From an uncultured Chloroflexia bacterium (GTDB taxonomy: Bacteria > Chloroflexota > Limnocylindria > Limnocylindrales > CSP1-4), in assembly GCA_963757865.1 (NCBI GenBank), contig CAVWSU010000013.1, positions 320,350 through 384,349 of the forward strand: DNA of 64,000 nt, read 5' to 3'. Below, in pieces: positions 15,301 through 27,604 of the stretch. The notes below the pieces were generated by a model. The model made no database searches and was not told where the DNA came from. It was given only the letters and a program-made list of their open reading frames with translations. Position numbers and translations under genes: made by a program. Position 1 is the first letter of the stretch. Each line of letters starts with the position of its first letter.

Positions 15301-16005
15301 GTGTCTGACTTCACGACGCTCCGCGAGGGCTCGCTCCACGCGGCGCTCAAGGCCCGCTATGCCGCGACCGTCGTCGACGGGCGGGTCGAGGTGGACGTGG
15401 ACGGCTTCGTCGTCGACGTCGCCGGCCGGGACGAGCTCGTCGAGATCCAGACCGCGAGCTTTGCGTCCCTCCGGCGCAAGCTCGAGCGACTCGTCGCGTC
15501 CCACCGCGTCGTCCTCGTCCATCCCGTCCCGATCGAGAAGTGGCTCGTGAGGGTCGATGCCGACGGCGTGATCCTGGGGCGCCGCCGCTCTCCGAAGCGT
15601 GGTCTCGGGCTCGACCTGTTCGACGAGCTGGTGCACATCCCCGCGCTCGTCGCCGATCCGTGCTTCCGGATCGAGCTTCTGCTCGTGCGAGAGGAGGAGA
15701 TCCGGGGGCCGGTCCCCGTGGGCGCCAGGTTCCGCTATCCGCGGGACTGGTGGCGCCTTGACCGCCGGCTGATCGAGGTGGTCGAAACCCGGCGCATCGA
15801 CGGCCCGGCCGACCTGCTCGGTCTCCTCCCGCCGGGACTGCCGGAACCCTTCACGAGCGCCGACATCGCCACGGCAAGCGGACGCCCCAGGCGCCTGGCG
15901 ATGCGCGCCGCCTACTGCCTCGAGCGATCGGGCGCCATCGACCGGCTGGATCGCCGGGGGCGGCTCATGACGTACGCGCGTCGGGTCCCCACCGCGCCAG
16001 GTTGA
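15301..16005 (+). CDS. Hypothetical protein with PD-(D/E)XK nuclease-like motif and C-terminal HTH-like segment
   Basis: EGSLHAALK...EVDVDGFVVDV...VEIQT pattern; function inferred only. Confidence 0.6.
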   Translation: MSDFTTLREGSLHAALKARYAATVVDGRVEVDVDGFVVDVAGRDELVEIQTASFASLRRKLERLVASHRVVLVHPVPIEKWLVRVDADGVILGRRRSPKRGLGLDLFDELVHIPALVADPCFRIELLLVREEEIRGPVPVGARFRYPRDWWRLDRRLIEVVETRRIDGPADLLGLLPPGLPEPFTSADIATASGRPRRLAMRAAYCLERSGAIDRLDRRGRLMTYARRVPTAPG

Positions 16006-16483
16006 CGTTCAGGTACGCCGGGTCGGTGCTCACCTCTCGCACGACCCGGAGCTCGGGCGGGAGGTCCGGCTCCGGCGCGTCGGGCCGATCGAACTCGATC
16101 TCGAGCACGACGAGACCGGCCGGCTGCTCGAACACGTCGAGCTCGAGCGTGTTGCCGGCGTAGGAGAACACGTGGCGGGTCTTCCGGATCGGGTGGCGGT
16201 CCACATCGGCCTCGTCCAGCAGGCGCGTGTACTCGGCGACGTCGATCGCCCGCTCGCGCTCCTCGCGCACGATGCCCGACACGGCGGCCTTCTCGGTGTA
16301 CGTCCACGTGGTCCGCCCATCGAGGACGCTGGACCGCACACGGCGCACCGGCGCCCCCGGTGTCGGGCGCAGGTAGATCTGCTCGATCCGGATCGCGCGT
16401 GCCCCGAGCGAGCGCAGTTCGGCGGCCGAGGGCGCCTCGGCGAGCAGCCATTTTCGCTCGATCTCGAGTCCGGAACCCTTCAT
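15965..16483 (-). CDS. CYTH (triphosphate tunnel metalloenzyme) domain protein
   Basis: EIERKW N-terminal motif, IEQIYL, REERERAI, RKTRH, ELDVF, LEIEF. Confidence 0.85.
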   Translation of the reverse strand: MKGSGLEIERKWLLAEAPSAAELRSLGARAIRIEQIYLRPTPGAPVRRVRSSVLDGRTTWTYTEKAAVSGIVREERERAIDVAEYTRLLDEADVDRHPIRKTRHVFSYAGNTLELDVFEQPAGLVVLEIEFDRPDAPEPDLPPELRVVREVSTDPAYLNVNLARWGPDARTS

Positions 16484-16576
16484 CGGCCAGCCTCCGTGGG
16501 GGAGGGCGGGGCGACGGTCTTCACCGCCGGTCGCCTCACGGCTGCGAGTCCCGCATGCACGTCGGGCACGACGAAG

Positions 16577-16604
16577 ACGGTATCCCCGACGGGTGCGCTG
16601 TCAA
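16577..16604 (-). promoter_or_regulatory. Sigma70-type promoter of the CYTH gene
   Basis: TTGACA-N16-TACCGT on the minus strand. Confidence 0.5.
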
Positions 16605-16754
16605 GCAGGCGAGGCGGGCATGTGCGTCACAGCCGGTTGGCAACTCTTGCGTGCGGGGTGTTCTAGCTGTGGGCGGTTGCCCGCGCAACGGGTACATCCG
16701 CGCCATAGCAGACAGCCGGGCAGGTGCCGCCCGCCCCCGAGCTGCGTTAGGGCA

Positions 16755-18641
16755 TCACGGAGAGGAGAAGGTGATCGGGGCGAGGGTATAGGCGAAGCCG
16801 TTGCCGAGGGTTGCGACGATCACGCACTGGTCGGTGCAAGCGATCGTCGGCGCAGCCAGGGGCCCGGACGCCGCGTGCGACTGGACGGTGAAGGTCCCCT
16901 CGCCAGCACGCGTCGCATCGGTCCCGAGGAAGGGTTGCCCGGCCAGCTGCGCCCCGCACCCGAGGTCGGTCGCGTCCGCGGCCGACGCGCACTCCGAGAG
17001 GAACACCTTGCCGCCCACGCCGAAGCCCGTGACCCGCACGACCACGAGCAGGCCGTCGATGAGCCCGTGGGAGGGCAGCACGACGATCGTCGGGTGATCG
17101 ACGGACAGCGCGGGCACGAGCGAGCCGACCGGAACGGGCGAGGTCGGCGCGACGGCTGCGCTCGGCGACGGTGCGACTGCCGTCGCATGCCAGACCGGGG
17201 TCGCGGTGGTGTCGCCGGTCCCCCAGCCAATCGCCACCAGGCCATCCGGCACGAGGAACACCTGACGCAACCAGCGGCCCGTCTGCTGCGGCACCGCGTT
17301 CGCCGGATCCGTGGCGGTCGCGCCGGACAGCGCGAGTTCGCGCCAGTCGGTGCCGTTCGTCGAGACCCAGTAGGAAAGGAGGGGCTGGCTCGTATCGGCG
17401 ACAGCGAGGATGTGCGTGCCGTCGTCCGCGAGCGTGTAGGACGGCAGGCTGGCCGCACCGGGTGCAGGCGATGGAGCGCCGGACACGCTGGCGGCGATCG
17501 GCACCCAGGTGCGCCCGTCGGGCGAGGTCCAGGCCGCAGAGTCCCGGCCGTCGCTCGTAGCGCCGACGGCGACAAGCCCCTCGCTTCCGGCGTAGATCAT
17601 GGCCAGATTCGATCCGCCACTGCCCGGGCCCTCCACGCTCGCCTTGGTCCAGGTCCGCCCGTCGGCCGACCACCAGGCCGCCGCGGTCGTCGGGATGGTC
17701 GATGCCGGTCCCCCCGTGACGCTCACCTGTTGGCTGCCGGTCCCGCCCCCCACCACGTAGCCCGGCCCGGCAGGGCGGACGGTCGAGAGATGGGCGTCGG
17801 CGAACGCCGCGCCAAGATCCAGGCGCGTCCAGGTCGCACCGGTGCCCGAGACCCAGATGGCCGGTGCGTTCCAGCCGGTGTCGCCGACCGCGACCAGGCC
17901 CGCCGGACCGTCGGTGATCGCGCTGATGCTTGCGCCGACGAACGGCGAGGCGTCCGGGATGGGAGTCCATGTGACCCCGTCGGGCGAGATCCAGAGCATG
18001 AGCGGCGCCGGGCTGCACGTCGCCGCAGCTCCCTGGCCGTGGCAGGCCGGCTGCCCGTCCGCGCCCCACGCCACGAGGCCGTCTCGTGCGCCCACGAGCA
18101 CGACCATGTCCGTGCCTGCGAACTGCGATCCGGCGCGCCCGAGCCTGGTCCACGTACTTCCGTCCGCCGAGCGCCAGACGGCTGCCTCCACCACGGTCCC
18201 CGACACGGCCTCGCCAGCCGCGTAGAGCGCGCCGTCGAACGACACCATGCTCGTGACGAACGACGCGTCGGGGATGCCCAGCGGGGCCGACCAGCGCAGG
18301 CCGCTCCAGGGGCCGCTGACCGCCCCTATGCCCGGCGACTGGGCGGGCTGCGGCGAGCCCACACTGGGAGTCCCGGTCGCGAGTGGCGGCGCCGTCCCCG
18401 GCAGCGCCCCGGTCTGCGCCGGTGGCCGAGTCGCGACGAGGAACCCGCCCGCGACGACGATCACGGCCGCGGCCGTGAGTGCCGAGACGAGCCGCAGGCC
18501 GAAGCGGTCGATGAGCCGGTGTGACGGCACAGCGTCGGCTGGGATCCGCCGGATGCTCGCGCGCAGCTCGTCGGGCACGTCGCCCGTCGCCCGCCGCAGG
18601 AGCGCGTCGCGCACCTCGCGCTCGAAGCGCTCGTCGTTCAT
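16755..18641 (-). CDS. Membrane-anchored anti-sigma candidate: cytoplasmic N-terminus, TM helix, Asp-box/BNR-like repeats, C-terminal neocarzinostatin-apoprotein-like domain
   Basis: ATGA-coupled to the sigma gene. About six W-x-S-x-D/T-G-x-x-W repeats. C-terminal VLPSHGLIDG...VTGF...SECA...GC...ACTDQCVIV...PITFS with four Cys. Confidence 0.75.
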   Translation of the reverse strand: MNDERFEREVRDALLRRATGDVPDELRASIRRIPADAVPSHRLIDRFGLRLVSALTAAAVIVVAGGFLVATRPPAQTGALPGTAPPLATGTPSVGSPQPAQSPGIGAVSGPWSGLRWSAPLGIPDASFVTSMVSFDGALYAAGEAVSGTVVEAAVWRSADGSTWTRLGRAGSQFAGTDMVVLVGARDGLVAWGADGQPACHGQGAAATCSPAPLMLWISPDGVTWTPIPDASPFVGASISAITDGPAGLVAVGDTGWNAPAIWVSGTGATWTRLDLGAAFADAHLSTVRPAGPGYVVGGGTGSQQVSVTGGPASTIPTTAAAWWSADGRTWTKASVEGPGSGGSNLAMIYAGSEGLVAVGATSDGRDSAAWTSPDGRTWVPIAASVSGAPSPAPGAASLPSYTLADDGTHILAVADTSQPLLSYWVSTNGTDWRELALSGATATDPANAVPQQTGRWLRQVFLVPDGLVAIGWGTGDTTATPVWHATAVAPSPSAAVAPTSPVPVGSLVPALSVDHPTIVVLPSHGLIDGLLVVVRVTGFGVGGKVFLSECASAADATDLGCGAQLAGQPFLGTDATRAGEGTFTVQSHAASGPLAAPTIACTDQCVIVATLGNGFAYTLAPITFSSP

Positions 18642-19198
18642 CGTGCCACCCCTGCGGCCCGCTCGGCCGCCTCGTAGCTCGCCCGCAGGGCAGACAACCC
18701 GCGGTGCAGACGGCTCTTCACGGTTCCCTCGGGCAGGCCCATGCGAGCCGCGATGCCGGGTACGCTCAGGTCCTCGACGAACCGCAGCGCGAGCACGAGA
18801 CGCTGGTCGGCCGGGAGGTCGGCAAGCGCCTGATCGAGGGCCTCGTGCTCGGCGGTACCGGCGAACGGGTCCGGGGCAGGCGGATCCGGCAGGGCGACCG
18901 GCAGCAGCCGGCGGCGGCGCGAGCGATCCCGGCACTGGTTCACGAGGATCCGGTCGAACCAGGCGTCAAAGCGGGCCGGATCGCGCAGCTCGTGCCAGTG
19001 GTGCCATGCCTGCAGCGCCGCATCGTGCACGGCGTCCTGCGCCTCCGACGGATCGCCGAGCACGATGCCGGCGAGCCGGTAGGCGCGCGTCAGTCGCGCG
19101 GCCGTCAGGCGCTCGAACGCCTCCCACGCCCCCGTCCGCGTCCCCCCGGACGTGCTGTCCACCAGCCCGACCCTCTCAAGCTCCTCCGCCCCGATCAT
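18638..19198 (-). CDS. ECF (sigma-70 group 4) RNA polymerase sigma factor
   Basis: Region 2 AQDAVHDAALQAW...FDAWFDRILVNQCRD; region 4 RLVLALRFVEDLSVPGIAARMGLPEGTVKSRLHRG. Confidence 0.92.
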   Translation of the reverse strand: MIGAEELERVGLVDSTSGGTRTGAWEAFERLTAARLTRAYRLAGIVLGDPSEAQDAVHDAALQAWHHWHELRDPARFDAWFDRILVNQCRDRSRRRRLLPVALPDPPAPDPFAGTAEHEALDQALADLPADQRLVLALRFVEDLSVPGIAARMGLPEGTVKSRLHRGLSALRASYEAAERAAGVAR

Positions 19199-19205
19199 GT
19201 TTTCC

Positions 19206-19233
19206 AGACGAACGAGACCAGGCCGATCGTTCC
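19206..19233 (-). promoter_or_regulatory. Putative ECF autoregulatory promoter (leaderless transcript)
   Basis: GGAAC-N18-CGTCT, ending 7 nt before the sigma ATG; no Shine-Dalgarno. Confidence 0.5.
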
Positions 19234-19454
19234 ATCTTCGTCGGTCGGAGGTTCAATCGTCGCGCCAGCCTGGGCTGGATGGCTGACCCTGTCCAGTGGA
19301 CCGAAGTTCGTCAGGTTGGTTGTGTCCGCAACCGCCCCACAGTTAGCACACCCCCAGGCCGCGAGATACCAACCGGCTGTGACGCACAAGGAGGCGGGCA
19401 CACGACGGCAGTCGGGCGCGTCTTCGGCGGCGCGGTGGGTGCCGCGGGCGCGAC

Positions 19455-20066
19455 CTAGCGTTTCGTCAGGATCCGCTCCAGAACCTCGCCGCTGTCCTCC
19501 ATCGCGTCGATGGCTTCTTCGAGGCCGGCGTAGATCTCCCGCCAGCGCAGCGCGAACATCGCGTCGCTCTGCCCCCTGAAGAGCGCGGCGATCGCCGCCC
19601 GCGAGAGCCCGTCGGCTTCGTGCTCGAGCTCGTGGACCACCTTGAGATGCGGCTCGAGGCCCTTGAACGTAGCCAGTCGGTGGAGCGCGCCGTGGAGCTG
19701 CGACGCGGCAGCCGAGAGGACGCGGACCAGCGCGATCGCCTGTGGAGTGGGCCGATCGATGCCGTTGATGACGAACGCCTCGGCGACCGCCTGGATCTCG
19801 TCGACGACGTCGTCGAGGCGCGACGACAGGGCGTGCACGTCCTCGCGGTCGAAGGGCGTCACGAGCGTCCGCTCCAGTCGGAGCGTGATCTCGCGATCCA
19901 CGATGTCCGCCTCGTGTTCGATGGAGCGGATCTCCGCGATGCGCTCCTCGAGCCGGTCGTACTGCTCGATCAGCGCCGCGAGCTTCTGCGCCGCGTCGAG
20001 CAGATGGTCGGCGAACTGGGCAAACAGCTCGGCGAAGTGCTCGTCGCGGGGGATGAGTCGGTGCAT
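19455..20066 (-). CDS. DUF47 / PhoU-like phosphate transport regulator
   Basis: EHEADIVDREI...TPFDREDVHAL...DDVVD and duplicated EHEAD motif. Confidence 0.88.
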   Translation of the reverse strand: MHRLIPRDEHFAELFAQFADHLLDAAQKLAALIEQYDRLEERIAEIRSIEHEADIVDREITLRLERTLVTPFDREDVHALSSRLDDVVDEIQAVAEAFVINGIDRPTPQAIALVRVLSAAASQLHGALHRLATFKGLEPHLKVVHELEHEADGLSRAAIAALFRGQSDAMFALRWREIYAGLEEAIDAMEDSGEVLERILTKR

Positions 20067-20233
20067 CGGTGCCCTCTGAGCTTGGGACGCGAAGCGGACG
20101 GCCCAAGCGTGGCACGTCCATCAGGACGCTGCTCGCCTCGGGCGCGCTCCGGACGCCGCGCGTCGAGCAGGACCGGGCGCCTCGCGCCCGGGTTCGTACG
20201 CGCGCCGCACCGGATGCTCACGCGAGCGCAGGG

Positions 20234-20725
20234 TCAGGCTGCCCGGGTCGTCCTCGCCGCCTCGTCCATCTCGGTGAACAGCCGCCCTGCCGTCTCGGTG
20301 GTCAGCCGTGCGTCGAGCAGGGGCAGGTAGACCTCCTCTTCCTTGGCGAAGTGGAGCGCGACGATGGCGTGCAGGCCATACAGCACCTGCCGAAGCGCGC
20401 GGACGTCGGGCCGTCCGGCTTGTGCGTCGGACGCCAGCACCTGCAGCTCGTCGCTCATGCGGGCGATCTCGACGTGGTCGCGCGACATCGTCGCGGTCGC
20501 CTGCGCGCCGCCCAATGCCCAGCCGACGATGGGGTAGAGCGCGGCCTCCTCGGCTGCCGCGTGGCGCAGCAGGTGCTGGTGGAGGAAGGCCGAGACGGCG
20601 GTGATGCGCTCGCTCGGAAGGTCGTGCTCGGCGTCGCCGAGCAGGTCGGCAACCGTGAGGATCTCGTCCACCCTGGCGCGCAGCTCGCGATGCTCGTCGC
20701 GCAGTGGTTCGGTCAGGCGGGCCAT
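20234..20725 (-). CDS. Hemerythrin domain protein
   Basis: EH...HAAAEE...H...HFAKEE metal-ligand pattern. Confidence 0.85.
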   Translation of the reverse strand: MARLTEPLRDEHRELRARVDEILTVADLLGDAEHDLPSERITAVSAFLHQHLLRHAAAEEAALYPIVGWALGGAQATATMSRDHVEIARMSDELQVLASDAQAGRPDVRALRQVLYGLHAIVALHFAKEEEVYLPLLDARLTTETAGRLFTEMDEAARTTRAA

Positions 20726-20985
20726 GCGGTACTCCCTGCCGGATTGGAGGCCCCGGGCCGAGCTTCGAGCTCGAACATGCGGTGCCGTGCCTTCGTCCGG
20801 CGTCGTACCGAGCATCCATCGCGCGGCGGGCAGTCGCAGTGATGTCGGTCGGGCAGGTGCAGGCGTGACGTGGCGGGCGCGTTCCCGGGCGACGCGGCAC
20901 AGCGCACGACCTTCACGACAGCCCGATCCCCGCGCCGTGAGCGCGTCGTCGCCTGTCACGGAGGCGACCCGCGTAAGATCGGTCA

Positions 20986-22074
20986 ATGACGCTCGACCGA
21001 TTTGCCGCCCTGGCGGATCCCCTGCGCCGCCGGATCCTGGTCGAGCTGGCGCGCGGCGGCTCGGCGGGCCGGACCGCGGGGGAGCTGGCGAGGGATCTCG
21101 GTCGGGGTCGTCCACTGATCTCGTACCACCTCGAACGGCTCGTCGCCGCGGCACTCATCACCGTGGAGCCCGATCCCGCCGATCGCCGGCGGCGCATCTA
21201 CCGTGCGGCCGGCGCCGCGAAGGCCCCCACCGGCGCCCCGAAGACGGTCGGTGGACCGGGCGCGGAGGGCGTGCCCGGGGGACTCGCGCCGGACGGGACC
21301 GGGATCGCAGGTCAGGCATCGCCGGCGGCGGGTGGGTCGCGCCCGACCGTCCATCCCCTCGTTGCGCCCGCGGATCTGCCCGTCGGTGCCCTGGCGAACG
21401 GGCTCCGGGTGCCGCCCGGCGGTCCGCAGCCCCTGCTCGGTCGGGGGCTCACGCCGGAGGTGCGTGCCCGGCTGAGCCGCCACCTCCAGCGCCACCGGGG
21501 TGCGGCGGGTCAGATCCTCTTCTCGCAGGACGATCCGCCGAGCGGGATCTGGTTCGTCGAATCCGGCGCGGTTCGCCTCTACACCTCGGACGCCGACGGT
21601 CGCGAGCAGACGCTCCAGGTGGTGCGGGCGGGTGCATCGTTCAACGAGGTCCCGTTCTTCGATCTCGGGCCCGAACCGGCGACGGCGCAGGTGGTGGAAC
21701 CGTCCGAGCTGCTCGTGCTGCCGGTCGAGCGTCGCGAGGAGATCCTGCGGGCCGCACCGGAGCTCGCCATCGCGGCGGCGGCGAGCTTCGCCTTCCGCCT
21801 GCGCCAGGCCATCGCGCTGGTGGAGGATCTCTCGTTCCGGCAGCTGGGAGGCCGCGTGGCGCGCGTCCTGCTCCAGGCGGTGGCGCCGCACCCCGGCGTC
21901 GGAGCGGGGTCCGGCGGACGGCCCCTGACCCAGCGCGAGATCGCCGAGATGGTGGGTTCGAGCCGCGAGGTGGTGGCGCGCACGCTGCGCCAGCTCGAGC
22001 GCGAAGGCCTGATCCGCGTCGAACGCGGCCGCATCCTCCTGCTGGATCGGGACGGGCTGGCGTCCCGGGAGTGA
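20986..22074 (+). CDS. ArsR-type HTH fused to a Crp/Fnr regulator
   Basis: N-terminal ALADPLRRRILVEL...ISYHLERL; cNMP-binding domain ILFSQDD...VESGAVRL; C-terminal LTQREIAEMVGSSREVVARTL. TAAGAT 6 nt before the ATG suggests a leaderless start. Confidence 0.8.
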   Translation: MTLDRFAALADPLRRRILVELARGGSAGRTAGELARDLGRGRPLISYHLERLVAAALITVEPDPADRRRRIYRAAGAAKAPTGAPKTVGGPGAEGVPGGLAPDGTGIAGQASPAAGGSRPTVHPLVAPADLPVGALANGLRVPPGGPQPLLGRGLTPEVRARLSRHLQRHRGAAGQILFSQDDPPSGIWFVESGAVRLYTSDADGREQTLQVVRAGASFNEVPFFDLGPEPATAQVVEPSELLVLPVERREEILRAAPELAIAAAASFAFRLRQAIALVEDLSFRQLGGRVARVLLQAVAPHPGVGAGSGGRPLTQREIAEMVGSSREVVARTLRQLEREGLIRVERGRILLLDRDGLASRE

Positions 22075-22225
22075 GGACGCGCGCGTCGGCACGACGCGGT
22101 CCGAGGGCGTGGGCTGGCCACGGCTGACGTCCTGCTTCCCCCGGGGCCGCCACGGCAGGCCGCCGGTTGACCCATCCCCGACGGATGTCACATCGCCGGC
22201 CGGCCCGGACGGCGATCCTGCGGCC

Positions 22226-22510
22226 ATGGCAGCGCACACGGCCGGCATGCAGGCGGACCGGCGGGGACGGTGGGACGAGATCGCGCCGGGGCCGGTCCCG
22301 CGCATCGATGTCGCCGTCTGCACGGCGTGCGGGCTCTGCCTTGTCGTGTGCCCCTCCGGCGCCATCGGCCTCGCGTGGAGTCGCGATGGCGCGATGCTGC
22401 CGTGGATCGACGAGCGACGTTGCGTGTGCTGCGACGAGTGCGAGCGGGCATGTCCCGAGCGTGCCGTCGAGGTTCCGTTCGAGGTTGTCCTGCAGGAGAG
22501 GAGTCGGTGA
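22226..22510 (+). CDS. 2x[4Fe-4S] dicluster ferredoxin
   Basis: CTACGLCLVVCP and CVCCDECERACP motifs; start uncertain. Confidence 0.85.
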   Translation: MAAHTAGMQADRRGRWDEIAPGPVPRIDVAVCTACGLCLVVCPSGAIGLAWSRDGAMLPWIDERRCVCCDECERACPERAVEVPFEVVLQERSR

Positions 22511-22824
22511 TGAGCGACGTGAAGACGGATGTCCCGGCCGTGGGCCCCGATGCGCCAGGGTCGGCGGGTGCGCCGGCGGTGAGTGCCGCCGTCCGGGAGA
22601 TCCGGGCCGCGGACATCGACGTGAGCGTGCGCCACCAGACGATCATGGGCGCCATCGACGCGCTGGGGCCCGGTCAGGCCGTGCGGCTGCGCGTGGACCA
22701 CGAACCCAGGCCGCTCTTCTACATGCTCCAGGCCGAACGGCCCGGCCTGGTGAGCTGGGAGCCCGAGCTGGAGGGGCCACGAGAGTGGGTCGTGCTCGTG
22801 CGCCGGCTGCCCGGCGACGCCTGA
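22510..22824 (+). CDS. DUF2249 domain protein
   Basis: RHQTIMGAIDALGPGQAVRLRVDHEPRPLFYML...WEPELEGPREWVV. Confidence 0.8.
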   Translation: MSDVKTDVPAVGPDAPGSAGAPAVSAAVREIRAADIDVSVRHQTIMGAIDALGPGQAVRLRVDHEPRPLFYMLQAERPGLVSWEPELEGPREWVVLVRRLPGDA

Positions 22825-22828
22825 GCTG

Positions 22829-23473
22829 ATGCGGGGGACCGGGTCGATGCTTCAGGGCCGCGGGGACGGGTCGCAGATCGGGGCCACTGTTGTCGTGCTC
22901 GTCGCGCTCACCAGCAGCGCGGCAGGGATCATCCACCTCCTGGTCGCGCCCGAGCACCTGGCCGAGATCCCGTGGCTGGGGAGGGCGTTCCTCGTCACGG
23001 GGTGGCTGCAGGTCATGTTCGGCTGGGCGTGCCTGCTTCGCGCCCCTGGCCGGCGCGGCGCAGCCCTCGCCGCGGCCATCAACGTCGCCTTCATCGGCGT
23101 GTGGGCGTGGTCACGGACGGTCGGCTGGCCGATCGAAGCCCCGGGCGAACCGATCCAGGCGATCGATCTGACGTGCGTCGCGTTCGAAGGCCTCACGGCA
23201 GCACTGCTCGTGTGGACCGCCGCGCGGCCGCTCGCATCCCTGGGCTGGCGCCGCGACGGAGTGGGCATCGTGGCAGCCGTGCTGGCGGCCGTCGTCGTGA
23301 GCGCGGCGCTCCTCCTGACCCCGCCGGACACCAACGGGATGAACGGGAGCGCATTCGACCGTGCGGGTGAGGGCACCGGCTCGGCACGCACGATCCCGTC
23401 GATCGGACGGGACGCGGCCGGCACGCCCGCGGTCGTGGCGCGCGCCTCGACCGCAACGACCCGGCGCCAGTGA
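22829..23473 (+). CDS. Hypothetical membrane protein with a His-containing TM motif
   Basis: About five TM segments, AGIIHLLVAPEH; no confident family. Confidence 0.6.
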   Translation: MRGTGSMLQGRGDGSQIGATVVVLVALTSSAAGIIHLLVAPEHLAEIPWLGRAFLVTGWLQVMFGWACLLRAPGRRGAALAAAINVAFIGVWAWSRTVGWPIEAPGEPIQAIDLTCVAFEGLTAALLVWTAARPLASLGWRRDGVGIVAAVLAAVVVSAALLLTPPDTNGMNGSAFDRAGEGTGSARTIPSIGRDAAGTPAVVARASTATTRRQ

Positions 23474-24255
23474 ACGCCGCCACGCTCGACGCCGGCGGAC
23501 GGTCGGGCGAGCGGGTGCCATGGATCCCACGCCAGCACGGCGCCTGGGCGATGCTCGCCGTCAGCGCCCTGCTCGGCACGGCGGCCAGCCATGTCGATCT
23601 CCGGCAGCTCGTCCTCTCGGTGACCGCCGTGAGCGGCTACCTGGCGTCGAGCGCGGGCCTCGACTGGATCCGCGCGCGCCGCCGGGTCTATCTCGAGCCC
23701 GTCGCGGTCTTCGGTGCCGTGTGCGTGGCGTCGGGCGGGTCCCTCCTCGTCGCGTTCCCGGCGCTGGGCGTCGTCGCCGCCGTGGTCGCGGTGGCCGCGG
23801 CCGTGACCGCCGCCATGGCCCGGCTTGGGCATCCGCGCAGCCTGGTCGCGAGTCTCGCCCAGGTGGCACAGGCGGCCTGCCTCGTTCCCGCGATGGCGCT
23901 GGTTGCCGGGGCCGGCAGCGAGCCGACGACGGTCGCACGTGCCACCGTCGTCGCGGGCCTCTACCTCGCCGGCTCGGTGCTGGTCGTGCGCTCGATGATC
24001 CGCGAGCGGGGCAATCGCCCCTTCCGGGCAGTCTCGATCGGGTATCACGTCGGCGTCGTGGTCGTCGAGGCGTGGCTGCTGCCCGCCGCGTACGCCGTGC
24101 TCGCAGCTGCCCTCGTCATCCGCGCGGTCGGGCTACCCGCCCTGCAGGACCGACTCGCGGCCGGGCCTCGCCGCCTGCGGCCCATCCACCTCGGGCTGGT
24201 CGAGTTCGCCGCATCCGCGGCGTTGGCGGCGGCGGCCTTCCTCGTCGGGTTCTGA
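23470..24255 (+). CDS. YwiC-like family membrane protein
   Basis: WIPRQHGAWAML N-terminal signature, VRSMIRER, GLVE. Confidence 0.85.
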   Translation: MNAATLDAGGRSGERVPWIPRQHGAWAMLAVSALLGTAASHVDLRQLVLSVTAVSGYLASSAGLDWIRARRRVYLEPVAVFGAVCVASGGSLLVAFPALGVVAAVVAVAAAVTAAMARLGHPRSLVASLAQVAQAACLVPAMALVAGAGSEPTTVARATVVAGLYLAGSVLVVRSMIRERGNRPFRAVSIGYHVGVVVVEAWLLPAAYAVLAAALVIRAVGLPALQDRLAAGPRRLRPIHLGLVEFAASAALAAAAFLVGF

Positions 24256-24416
24256 CCATCCGAACTGACCGTGGCGACGCGGATCCGCGACACCGCTGCG
24301 CGATCGCGTCAGGCCGGAGAGGCGTCGATCACGAGCCCGTGTCCGAGTGGGCCCACCCACCCTGGTTTCCCCACCCCAGGCAATGGTGCCGGGGTGCCCG
24401 GCCCTGCTCCGGGCCC

Positions 24417-25397
24417 TCACACTCCATGCAGGGACAGGACCCGCCGCGGATTCTCGACCGTCATCCGGTGGATCGCGTCGTCGGATACGCCGGCGGCGCG
24501 GAGGCGCGGCAGGTACGTGTCCTGCAGGTACGTGTAGCCGTGGCCGCCGTACGCGGCCAGCTGCAGCGTATGGCAGACATCCTGCGAGAGCAGCAGGTGA
24601 TCCGCGTGCCCTCGACCGATCAGGTCGCAGAGCAGCCGTTCGCCGCGGGGCTCCATGGCCGCGTCCAGGCGGGAGAAGTCCATGCCCAGGAAGTCGAACT
24701 CGATGGATGCCCCACGCTCCAGCAGCGCGAGGTGGTAGTCGAGATAGGGGTACGAGTCGACGTGGCCGATCACGATGCGCCCCGGGTCGAGCCCCTCGTC
24801 CAGGAGCACGCCGAGCTGGGCGAGACCGACGCGCGATTGGGCCGCGTGGGTCGTCACCGCCATGCCGGTCGCCTTCGCCGCCCGTGCGCACGCTCGAAAG
24901 ACCCGCTCCTCCTGGGCCGACATCCAGGGCTTGTCGGTGCCGATCTCGCCGATGATCCCCGGCCTGATCCCGGTACCGGCCACCCCGTCGTGGAACTCCC
25001 GTATCAGCTCCTCGGCCAGCTCGTCGACGGAGCGTCGGTCCACCAGGGCCTCGACCGGGTAGTAGGCCTGGCGGTACCAGCCCGAGCCCATCACGATGGG
25101 CAACCCCGTGCGTTCCGAGAGCCGGCGCAGGCGCATCGCGTCCCGGCCCAGTCCGTGGTTGGTGACGTCGACCAGGCACGTCCCGCCACGTGCGCGGAAG
25201 CGCTCCAGCTCCGGCGCGATCACATCCTCGTCCCGGATCAGCTCCCAGTAATCCCAGCGGTTCTGGATGTGCCAGAGCTCGAGGCCGGTGTGCTCGTGCG
25301 GCAGGATGAAGCCGAGCGTTCCGGCGGCCACCGTGCCGGTGACCGTCTGGACGATCGGCTCCCGCGGCGGATGGCTCGAAGACGGTGACGCCGACAT
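24417..25397 (-). CDS. Phosphotriesterase-related protein (amidohydrolase superfamily)
   Basis: LPHEH, GIIGEIG, TTH, IGHVD, LSQDVC metal-binding motifs. Confidence 0.9.
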   Translation of the reverse strand: MSASPSSSHPPREPIVQTVTGTVAAGTLGFILPHEHTGLELWHIQNRWDYWELIRDEDVIAPELERFRARGGTCLVDVTNHGLGRDAMRLRRLSERTGLPIVMGSGWYRQAYYPVEALVDRRSVDELAEELIREFHDGVAGTGIRPGIIGEIGTDKPWMSAQEERVFRACARAAKATGMAVTTHAAQSRVGLAQLGVLLDEGLDPGRIVIGHVDSYPYLDYHLALLERGASIEFDFLGMDFSRLDAAMEPRGERLLCDLIGRGHADHLLLSQDVCHTLQLAAYGGHGYTYLQDTYLPRLRAAGVSDDAIHRMTVENPRRVLSLHGV

Positions 25398-25517
25398 GGC
25401 GACATCATCGCGCACTTGCCGGCGTGCGGTTCGCAGGGTGCGCGCGGTCGTGTTCACCGCCGCCGAGCCGCGCCCCCGCTGCCCCAGGGCGCAGTGGTGA
25501 TCCCTTCGGCGACCTGC

Positions 25518-26612
25518 CTATGCGGAGGGGGAGACGATCTCACCCTGTGCTGGCGTCTTCAGCAACGCCGGTCCGAGCACGTAGTAGCGTCCGCGCTTTT
25601 CGCCGGTGGCTCGCAGCCAACCGTCCTTCACCGCGGCCTCGAGGTCACGGGTCGTGTTCTGCGGCGACCGCCCCGTGAGGCGGATGTAGTCCCCGGCTCG
25701 CAGGTGCCGATTGACCCATGCGTAGGCGAGCCCGTCGATCATCGCGGGCGGGAGCGACCCATCTGTGATCGCCCGGCGGATCTCGACCATGACATCGCCG
25801 AGGCCTCGGAGCCTTGCCAGAACGTAATCGGCCGATCGGGTGATCGACGTCACGAAGTAGCGGGCGAAGGGCGTTGCGTCATACCCCGGCGCGTAGTCTT
25901 GGCCGAGCGTGTCGCGGATGGCGGCGAAGTAGGCGGATCGGTCCAGATCGAGTTGAGCGTCGAGCGAGACCAGACCGCCGAGGGCGTAGCCGTCGCGCAC
26001 GAGGATCAACCGGGCGATCGCGCGTGCCGTCCGCCCGTTGCCGTCGTTGAACGGGTGGATGGCGACGAACTCGAGGTGGGCGAGGGCCGCGACGACAGGA
26101 GGAGCGTGACGCCTGGTTGCCGTAGCGAGCCAGGCGGCCAACTCGCGCATGAGCTCGGGGACGTCGCCAGAGGGGGGCGTCCTGAAGGTCGGGCTGCCGT
26201 CCGCGTCCACGACCCGGTTCTCACCACGGCGATACTCGCCCGGCGTGAGCAGCGGGCTCTGGTTCCATAGCACCCGCCGATGCAGCTCTCTGATGACGGC
26301 CTCGTCGGGAACGACGCGCGTCGCGGCCAGTTCGTCGGCGAGCGTCAGCGCGTCACGTGTACCGATGATCTCGCGAGCCTCCTTGTCACTGACCTTGGTC
26401 GAGCCCTCTCCGGCGAGCAGCGCCGCGACCTCGACGTCGGAGGCGGTATTGCCCTCGATACGGGCGGTGCCGTGGATGGTCCGCACCCACGCGCGGCGCC
26501 GCATCCACTCGGCGTGGGTGGGGTCGATCGGCAGGTTATCGAACAGCCAGCGCCGCTGCTCGAGGTCGGCAAGCGGCTTGGCAAGGGCGCGCCCGCGCAG
26601 TCGGTATCGCAT
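25518..26612 (-). CDS. Fic family protein with C-terminal winged HTH
   Basis: Canonical HPFNDGNGRTAR; N-terminal inhibitory TARIEG motif; C-terminal TTRDLEAAVKDGWL...GEKRGRYY. Confidence 0.9.
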   Translation of the reverse strand: MRYRLRGRALAKPLADLEQRRWLFDNLPIDPTHAEWMRRRAWVRTIHGTARIEGNTASDVEVAALLAGEGSTKVSDKEAREIIGTRDALTLADELAATRVVPDEAVIRELHRRVLWNQSPLLTPGEYRRGENRVVDADGSPTFRTPPSGDVPELMRELAAWLATATRRHAPPVVAALAHLEFVAIHPFNDGNGRTARAIARLILVRDGYALGGLVSLDAQLDLDRSAYFAAIRDTLGQDYAPGYDATPFARYFVTSITRSADYVLARLRGLGDVMVEIRRAITDGSLPPAMIDGLAYAWVNRHLRAGDYIRLTGRSPQNTTRDLEAAVKDGWLRATGEKRGRYYVLGPALLKTPAQGEIVSPSA

Positions 26613-26622
26613 GAGGGCCTCT

Positions 26623-26672
26623 GGTAATCGTGTCAAGTATTACCGCAGACGGTAAAATGTCAAGGTATTACC
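26623..26672. promoter_or_regulatory. Two tandem palindromic operators in the fic promoter
   Basis: GGTAAT-N10-ATTACC (26623-26644) and GGTAAA-N10-ATTACC (26651-26672), each enclosing TTGACA on the minus strand. Confidence 0.65.
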
Positions 26673-26997
26673 GCCCTCGCGAAGCCCCTCACGACGCCTG
26701 CCCGGCGGGGAGCGAGGCGCGCGTTCGTCGCAATCGGCCACACGATCCTCGGCATCGTCTATCACGCCATCCGAACCGGTAGACCATACGAGGACCTCGG
26801 CCCCACGTACTTGGACGCCGCCCCGAGCGGGAGCACGCACCTGGCGAGCCACCGGCGAACAGGGCTCCGTGCGGGCGCGTCGTGACGCCGACCGCGTCAC
26901 CAGGCGGCTCACGCGTCGCCTCGAGGATCTCGGGTATGACGTGGTCCTCCGTGAGGTCCACGGCTGAGCCGCCGCCGGCGATGTTCGAGGCAGGCTC

Positions 26998-27528: not shown

Positions 27529-27604
27529 TGGTGGAGATGAGGGGACTCGAACCCCTGACCCCCGCGATGCGAACGCGGTGCTCTCCCAGCTGAGCTACAT
27601 CCCC
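27529..27604 (-). tRNA. tRNA-Ala(CGC)
   Basis: Reverse complement GGGGATGTAGCTCAGCTGGGAGAGCACCGCGTTCGCATCGCGGGGGTCAGGGGTTCGAGTCCCCTCATCTCCACCA: 76 nt, G3-U70 pair, CCA encoded. Confidence 0.97.

Follow-up and report, generated by a model that had tools for sequence, protein, structure and literature searches.

Passenger-carrying elements without a transposase are represented among described systems by the mobile insertion cassettes (MICs), such as the insertion sequence (IS) 231-derived MIC231 of the Bacillus cereus group (MICs are reviewed in PMC6199540), and by mosaic passenger-carrying elements built from Tn3-derived inverted-repeat miniature elements (TIMEs; PMC4133298). A second point of reference is provided by prokaryotic Mutator-like (p-MULT) elements, described by Guerillot et al. 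(2014, PMC3942029), which have 18-39-bp repeats ending in C together with 8-9-bp duplications; p-MULT members with near-perfect repeats insert both ways round. Among them, the TnGBS/ISLre2 family and the ISKra4 group choose sites located 15-17 bp upstream of the -35 box of sigma-A promoters, and some of these elements carry passenger genes. A circular intermediate with 6-10 bp between its ends is a further hallmark of these groups. The current study concerns a 2,772-bp cassette (positions 16619-19390) that holds an extracytoplasmic function (ECF) sigma gene and its candidate anti-sigma partner within a 64,000-nt stretch of DNA, hereafter the window, from an uncultured Chloroflexia bacterium (GCA_963757865.1, contig CAVWSU010000013.1, positions 320,350 to 384,349). 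We consider it likely that this cassette is a non-autonomous, transposase-less derivative of a Limnocylindria-type DDE transposon family. Presumably, a family element carrying the ECF sigma/anti-sigma operon with its own promoter would have inserted upstream of the promoter of a CYTH-domain gene and duplicated GAGGCGGG in the process, whereas recombination between two direct copies of an 18-nt sequence, termed block C, would have removed the transposase module to leave only the ends and the cargo. The features of the cassette and of the promoter beside it are as follows, in window coordinates.

16577..16604, minus strand: TTGACA (16604-16599), 16 nt, TACCGT (16582-16577); sigma-A-type promoter-like, faces the CYTH gene
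16611..16618, no strand: target-site duplication, left copy GAGGCGGG; same geometry in five other elements
16619..16708, plus strand: left arm with blocks A, B and C, from the repeat search and alignments
16619-16646, plus strand: left block A, terminal inverted repeat CATGTGCGTCACAGCCGGTTGGCAACTC
~16655-16689, plus strand: left block B
16691-16708, plus strand: left block C GGTACATCCGCGCCATAG, 18 nt
16755..18641, minus strand: candidate anti-sigma gene, 628 aa; ATGA overlap with the sigma stop codon
18638..19198, minus strand: ECF (group IV) sigma gene, 186 aa; Sigma70_r2 7e-11, Sigma70_r4_2 6e-17
19211..19233, minus strand: ECF-like promoter motif GGAAC-N14-CGTT, with 12 nt between its end and the sigma ATG
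19316..19390, minus strand: right arm with blocks B and A
19319-19354, minus strand: right block B
19363-19390, minus strand: right block A, terminal inverted repeat CTTGTGCGTCACAGCCGGTTGGTATCTC as read on the minus strand
19391..19398, no strand: target-site duplication, right copy GAGGCGGG, read from the sequence

A repeat search of the window yielded one standout inverted pair, which is an ungapped match of 53 nt between 16621-16673 and 19336-19388 with 79% complementarity, and a gapped alignment with two small gaps widens the homology of the arms to approximately 16619-16695 versus 19390-19316, or ~75 nt per arm. Within this pair, the perfect 20-nt core TGTGCGTCACAGCCGGTTGG has exactly two sites in the window, at 16621 (+) and 19388 (-), zero matches in 100 shuffles, and no site outside the two arms elsewhere in the source assembly (3.43 Mb in 22 contigs, 88.9% complete). 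Inverted arms with 20 identical bases near both ends had already been described in an earlier sequence-only reading of this DNA, and they are evidently real. The 8-mer GAGGCGGG directly abuts the arm tips CATGTGCG... and ...CGCACAAG, while a match of 8 of 8 bases at one fixed position is expected by chance with a probability of only ~1e-4 to 1e-5 in DNA of 72% G+C. The base C follows GAGGCGGG on both sides of the cassette; based upon comparison with other family copies, this terminal C was assigned to the repeat and not to the duplication.

The nature of the arms is evident from their counterparts in other genomes. Block A corresponds to the 28-nt terminal inverted repeat of the family, which has the consensus CTTGTGCGTCACAGCCGGTTGGTAAGTCC and a terminal C. 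A BLAST search with the left arm against 60 relatives located this terminus in the genus members G001, G003, G005, and G010, and at the family level it is present in 11 of 151 genomes and 7 of 49 genera, at 1-3 copies per genome. An exact-pattern scan of 185,579 species genomes returned 20 matches: 10 in other metagenome-assembled genomes (MAGs) labelled Chloroflexi, Chloroflexia or Candidatus Limnocylindrales, one in an Anaerolineaceae-labelled MAG, and nine without the conserved flanking bases, the latter being at the level expected by chance. A metagenome scan provided 39 contigs with the terminus. Such a patchy, low-copy spread is the pattern of a mobile element. Furthermore, five additional inverted pairs each have their own perfect 8-bp repeat and share the geometry of the window, with the 8-mer followed by C[A/T]TGTGCG...:

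CAVRMJ010000009.1, 77416-80404: two-ended copy, duplication GACGCAGC
G005:C26, 158495-173487: two-ended copy, duplication GCACAGGG, one base being ambiguous within a G run (long-read assembly)
Metagenome contig L127, 498 bp: two-ended copy, duplication GTGTCGGA
G164:C63, 1.1 kb: two-ended copy, duplication GGCCAACC
G129:C222, ~23786-23857, 72 bp (L156): two-ended copy, duplication ACGTGCTG

The contents of these copies are unrelated, and therefore the ends and the duplication are what they have in common. The arm tips of the cassette are transposon ends and the 8-mer is a target-site duplication, which had been proposed from the window alone and is now corroborated by five other elements that are bounded by the same termini and flanked by perfect 8-bp duplications, a different one in each case. 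The family consists of low-copy transposable elements of Limnocylindria-type Chloroflexota that generate 8-bp duplications. Its smallest member seen is the G129:C222 element, which is barely more than two back-to-back termini with a TTGACA 16 bp past one end.

It might be argued that the repeats are instead copies of some dispersed motif with a regulatory or structural role (an operator or a small RNA, for example) placed around the operon, since one arm lies upstream of the sigma gene and the copies in relatives are intergenic beside regulator genes (lexA, lacI-type and padR-type). Six independent inverted pairs, each with a different perfect 8-bp flanking duplication, are difficult to reconcile with such a motif, as are pair spacings from 72 bp to 15 kb around unrelated contents, the adjacent transposase genes, and the patchy, low-copy distribution among the genera. 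Scans of the arms against Rfam (E up to 1) and for tRNAs gave no match either, and we regard this scenario as very improbable. The sigma pair was likewise not encountered at this position without the repeats, and the repeats did not turn out to be a dispersed motif devoid of duplications or transposase, given the five other duplications and the candidate transposase described below.

The history of the cassette is best examined in the sister species G005, in which positions 166628-169286 of G005:C26 are 93.8% identical to window 16692-19354 and lie within the 15-kb element listed above (L065, L103). Besides the sigma/anti-sigma module, this element carries the toxin-antitoxin pair AbiEii/AbiEi and a PadR-ABC transporter unit, and its two transposase genes are divergent (~35-40% at the amino acid level). 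Several open reading frames (ORFs) of the G005 element are broken, possibly as a result of long-read homopolymer errors. Unlike block A, blocks B (~35 nt) and C (18 nt) are genus-specific, and in autonomous copies block C is located ~40 nt before the transposase start codon. The order in G005 is A-B-C, transposase plus 8 kb, C, anti-sigma, sigma, B, 4 kb with the second transposase, and C-A, whereas the order in the window is A-B-C, anti-sigma, sigma, and B-A. In a four-way alignment, block C marks a switch in the left arm of the window, from a match to the G005 transposon end before it to a match to the cargo junction of both G005 and the contig ERZ27256814:k141_96753 past it. The left arm is a recombinant junction at the 18-nt block C, which is the signature of a direct-repeat deletion, and the cassette most likely arose by deletion from a larger autonomous transposon. 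The sequence-only reading had found neither a transposase nor a remnant of one in the interior. The first part holds, as the ORF list, a domain search, and tblastn with both candidate transposases as queries all failed to reveal a transposase-like ORF or match inside the cassette; the second part does not, as block C of the left arm (16691-16708) is the sequence upstream of the transposase start in autonomous copies. Block C is also repeated elsewhere in G005, where four tandem 20-bp copies GGTACTTCCGCGCCATAG directly follow an A-B terminus (L064, G005:C7 268965-269042) and a fifth copy is found 180 nt beyond the four tandem ones (G005:C7 269205-269222).

The G005 element directly borders the promoter of the orthologous CYTH gene, at the TTGACA that is shared with the window, and it has a DUF2975 gene rather than DUF47 on its far flank. 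As its module is the opposite way round to CYTH, one could envision an invertible segment, whose 75-nt arms serve as recombination sites for flipping the sigma operon relative to the CYTH promoter. However, the whole G005 element is inverted, including its ends, and it has a different duplication, which therefore indicates a separate insertion and not a flip. The arms are also only 79% identical and no recombinase gene exists within or beside the cassette, which leaves an invertible segment extremely unlikely. An internal flip of the module between the window's genome (G000) and G005 was ruled out by the orientations of the blocks. The two cargo elements at this promoter are products of either separate insertions or excision and re-insertion. 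Third-codon-position identity is 0.91 for the cassette compared to 0.79 and 0.73 for the adjacent CYTH and ORF234, respectively, and 0.88-0.93 for other backbone genes, values that are no more than suggestive of a recent horizontal transfer of the cassette.

A much stronger competitor is a fossil origin, in which a large autonomous transposon inserted and then decayed in place, such that the 2.8-kb unit never moved as such and persists as an operon fixed in the chromosome between relic ends. The only departure from the explanation favored here is the denial of past or present mobility of the cassette itself, and we would place the fossil origin only somewhat short of an even chance. The recombinant junction at block C is in line with such a history, as is the closer cargo relative ERZ27256814:k141_96753, which is 97.4% identical to the window module and retains the undeleted junction of the G005 type. 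The cassette also exists as a single genomic copy without a transposase, and its GC content (0.727) matches that of its flanks (0.719 and 0.722), with G+C at third codon positions (GC3) likewise equal; the comparison of GC and codon usage advocated in the sequence-only reading thus uncovered no compositional anomaly. Conversely, the internal deletion is not datable relative to the insertion, so it may have occurred before or after arrival at the CYTH site, an order of events that we can only infer. Both 20-nt tip cores are perfect and the duplication is intact, so mobilization would be unhindered, and the family does mobilize non-autonomous members, as indicated by freshly duplicated target sites around two-ended copies that lack a transposase and measure 72 bp to 1.1 kb. 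As a non-autonomous derivative, the cassette may still be movable by a transposase supplied in trans. Its original description as a mobile passenger cassette is accurate with regard to the transposon ends, the duplication, and the lack of a transposase, but it needs to be tempered in that the unit is a single 2.8-kb copy and a likely deletion derivative, which has maybe decayed in place.

A candidate for the cognate enzyme is encoded by a gene that recurs beside the termini and combines a cysteine-rich N-terminal part with a DDE region, usually followed by a DUF4379 zinc finger in the same or next ORF. This MULE-like gene is present at both ends of the G005 element, pointing inward, and whole or partial copies of it or of DUF4379 occur beside termini in contigs L116, L118, L109, L128/L141, and L132. 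The 28-nt tips of the window match the termini beside the MULE-like genes of G005, L116, L118, L128, and L132. Among the metagenome contigs, some of these genes read toward the terminus and others away, a pattern anticipated for a terminus that would flank a ~3-kb IS on both sides. The cognate enzyme is likely a distant MULE/IS256/IS1249-like transposase, judging from its domain similarities; it is Mutator-like by resemblance and by the features of the elements, which falls short of proven membership in a named family. The ISKra4 model gave no match to the candidate. The proposed search for copies with the same termini and for an autonomous IS yielded further copies and a candidate transposase in relatives, whereas the window's genome itself contains no tblastn homologue of either the MULE-like or the IS1595 transposase. 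The suggested IS231/IS4 precedent had to be abandoned, since the adjacent transposases are MULE-like and not of the IS4 type and the duplication is 8 bp. Duplications made by IS231 are longer than 8 bp.

An IS1595-family cassette deserves mention as well, given that members of this family typically make 8-bp duplications and carry passenger genes, and that an IS1595-type transposase (PF12762 and PF12760) is encoded between the same termini in CAVRMJ010000009.1. This transposase is encoded by a 1.74-kb IS that is nested in the element and bounded by perfect 25-bp repeats of its own; it is therefore not the cognate enzyme, and no IS1595 gene with these termini was found elsewhere. IS1595 was rejected as the cognate family on this basis, and we attach hardly any credence to it as the source of the cassette. 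The nested element (L086/L085) is a complete IS1595-family IS at 77964-79702 of CAVRMJ010000009.1, with 25-bp repeats CGCCGCTTGGACGCCTATCTCACAC at 77964-77988 and 79678-79702, and it encodes a zinc-ribbon plus DDE_Tnp_IS1595 transposase and a DUF2442 gene. The surrounding CAVRMJ element contains a third, internal copy of the terminus at 79744-79768.

Another shared characteristic of the family is the sequence into which its members insert. In all six duplication-bearing elements, including that of the window, the 8-mer past one end is followed by ~6 nt and then TTGACA, which places the element end 14 bp from the hexamer, or 16 bp in the G129 element. Among 55 non-redundant ends, TTGACA with no more than one mismatch is found at one fixed offset in 15, compared to ~0.25 expected, while any other offset has at most five matches. 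In G001, G003, and G010, the hexamer faces a LacI-type gene, lexA, and a PadR-type gene, respectively, and in the window it faces CYTH. The lexA promoter of G003 has a GAAC-N4-GTTC box, placed between TTGACA and TACGCT. The CYTH-facing TTGACA site is conserved in the sister species G005. From its sequence and position, TTGACA is probably the -35 box of sigma-A promoters. A -10-like nAnnnT at 16-18 nt accompanies only 7 of the 15 TTGACA sites.

Several observations weigh against one or another part of this interpretation. At the locus itself, the right and left arms depart from the 28-nt family consensus at 2 and 4 positions, respectively. The 2.8-kb form was found as a single copy and the closest cargo homologues sit in the larger form of the element, so that mobility of the cassette itself is at most putative. 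The empty site is also missing: synteny through either gene placed DUF47 beside CYTH in no relative, and the DUF47-GAGGCGGG-CYTH arrangement that the sequence-only reading expected in related genomes was seen in none of them. With regard to the enzyme, all matches of the candidate transposase are far below curated cut-offs (MULE PF10551, E=4e-4 to 7e-3; IS1249 NF033544, E=4e-7 to 1e-4; IS256 NF033543, E=7e-5 to 2e-4). A complete autonomous copy, which would combine both termini with an intact gene and a duplication, was not recovered; the far end of contig L128, considered in this search, is diverged and without a matching duplication. Several two-ended miniature inverted-repeat copies in metagenome contigs have unmatched 8-mers with one flank in common; these copies may be nested or composite. 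As for the promoter, a generic promoter/terminator scan of 16300-19600 reported no sites, TTGACA-N16-TACCGT included, which was missed because its -10 matches TATAAT at just 3 of 6 positions. In CAVRMJ, the TTGACA is a mere 12 nt from a start codon.

The cargo of the cassette has the composition of a putative ECF sigma/anti-sigma unit. The sigma protein contains only regions 2 and 4 (PF04542 and PF08281), it exceeds the cut-off of the sigma70-ECF model TIGR02937, and it falls slightly below that of the SigE-family model TIGR02983 (1e-38, 132.8 bits versus a cut-off of 141.55). Its partner is predicted by hydropathy to have a 50-aa cytoplasmic N-terminus and one membrane helix at approximately residues 51-70, and it continues with at least four WxSxDGxxW (Asp-box-like) repeats and a C-terminal neocarzinostatin-like domain. 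The matches to PF00960 (E=0.0048) and NF040680 (E=2e-8) each fall short of the respective cut-off, and no anti-sigma domain was matched in the partner in either Pfam or NCBIfam. The ATGA coupling, short cytoplasmic N-terminus, single helix, and large outer domain make it a probable anti-sigma-like protein, and the gene pair is conserved in relatives. Homologues of the partner with 40-53% identity are common in Limnocylindrales metagenomes, and their C-terminal domain varies between neocarzinostatin-like, DUF4232, DUF6242_C and BNR/sialidase-type, which suggests that these proteins could be a sensor family with swappable outer modules. The sigma gene, coupled partner, and ECF-type promoter listed in the sequence-only reading as the entire interior are all present, although the spacing of the promoter (AAC-N14-CGT) is off-consensus. 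Its spacer is 2-3 nt below the usual ECF spacing. The putative motif is nevertheless unchanged in ERZ27256814:k141_96753.

The genes on either side of the cassette are both on the minus strand:

15965..16483, minus strand: CYTH-domain gene (PF01928, 5e-6), downstream of the targeted promoter; orthologue in G005
19455..20066, minus strand: DUF47/PhoU_div gene (PF01865, 1e-24)

The neighbors of DUF47 differ in every relative. In G001 and G013, a convergent histidine kinase gene is found downstream of DUF47, and homology to the window extends no further than the stop codon of DUF47. In five genus members (G001, G003, G004, G006, and G008), the gene ahead of CYTH encodes a metallophosphoesterase, and only G005 has the CYTH promoter context of the window. 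The minus strand of window 16484-16600 translates as ...DTVFVVPDVHAGLAAV..., which resembles the metallophosphoesterase N-terminus MRLLIVSDLHANLAALER; judging from this similarity, 16484-16600 is the remnant of a deleted metallophosphoesterase gene, located downstream of TTGACA in both the window and G005. A different internal deletion affects the same metallophosphoesterase gene in G008. If the two flanks were joined, the empty site would read ...GTCAAGCAGGC-GAGGCGGG-CACACGACGG..., and the intact duplication would imply that the flanks were adjacent when the element arrived in this lineage. From the cassette to the common backbone, window 19399-26996 and G005:C26 157802-158490 consist of unrelated DNA, with 7.6 kb on the window side (DUF47, hemerythrin, and a Crp/MarR-type regulator) and 0.7 kb with the DUF2975 gene on the G005 side. 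The common backbone restarts at window 26997, just before tRNA-Ala (27529-27604), which places this variable spot beside a tRNA gene.

The cassette provides a sequence-resolved case of an apparently complete ECF sigma/anti-sigma unit within transposon ends, and such units are one means by which a new signal-to-transcription channel could be acquired by a bacterium all at once. The locus also illustrates a route to fixation, via loss of the transposase by recombination at a short internal repeat. At the level of the family, the analysis has uncovered low-copy transposable elements in an uncultured soil and freshwater lineage, whose insertions keep a constant spacing to TTGACA. Should this be confirmed, the targeting of promoter-upstream sites by Mutator-type transposases would extend to the Chloroflexota, and these elements would offer a natural system for its study. 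A more ambitious reading is that these elements form an undescribed, Mutator-related Limnocylindria family that constitutes a further -35-targeting lineage besides TnGBS/ISLre2 and ISKra4, which shuttles whole regulatory modules between species (ECF sigma/anti-sigma units and, in the 15-kb form, PadR-ABC and AbiE as well), has hit the same promoter in each of two sister species, and includes a cassette that can be mobilized in trans. We offer this broader picture tentatively, as it seems to us closer to one chance in three than to an even one. Otherwise, the locus is a tidy and moderately surprising case for specialists, and it introduces no new principle.

Among the systems with promoter-upstream insertion, TnGBS/ISLre2/ISKra4 elements resemble the present family in their terminal C, in repeats within the 18-39 bp range, in 8-bp duplications, and in insertion in both orientations. 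The -35-like hexamer lies at a fixed distance from one end in both cases, at 14-16 bp here compared to the published 15-17 bp (PMC3942029), passenger genes occur in some members of these groups, and the ISKra4 group includes Chloroflexi among its hosts (PMC3942029). The present family is distinguished from them by its sub-threshold similarity to MULE/IS256/IS1249, its DUF4379 companion, and the lack of a transposase in the window copy. The IS256 family similarly pairs 8-9-bp duplications with a DDE enzyme of the Mutator superfamily, and IS1249, IS256 and MULE are the best, but weak, neighbors of the candidate enzyme; however, IS256 elements are 1.3-1.5 kb with one gene, and their insertion is reported to be random (PMC3942029), whereas members of the present family are ~3 kb or larger and have a target motif. 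Like MICs and TIME mosaics, the cassette ends in terminal inverted repeats of the IS type beside a target-site duplication, and in place of a transposase it carries passenger genes with no relation to transposition. It departs from them in being Mutator-like rather than IS4 or Tn3, in its 8-bp duplication, in its uncultured Chloroflexota host, in its regulatory cargo, and in that its mobilization in trans is hypothetical. Lastly, an island of Streptomyces coelicolor (bioRxiv 10.1101/247056) similarly places an ECF sigma factor on horizontally acquired DNA, but that island is large and holds target genes of the regulon, whereas the cassette consists of the sigma/anti-sigma pair only. A passenger-carrying transposon without a transposase is a known kind of element; here, its cargo is unusual and its host lineage is poorly known.

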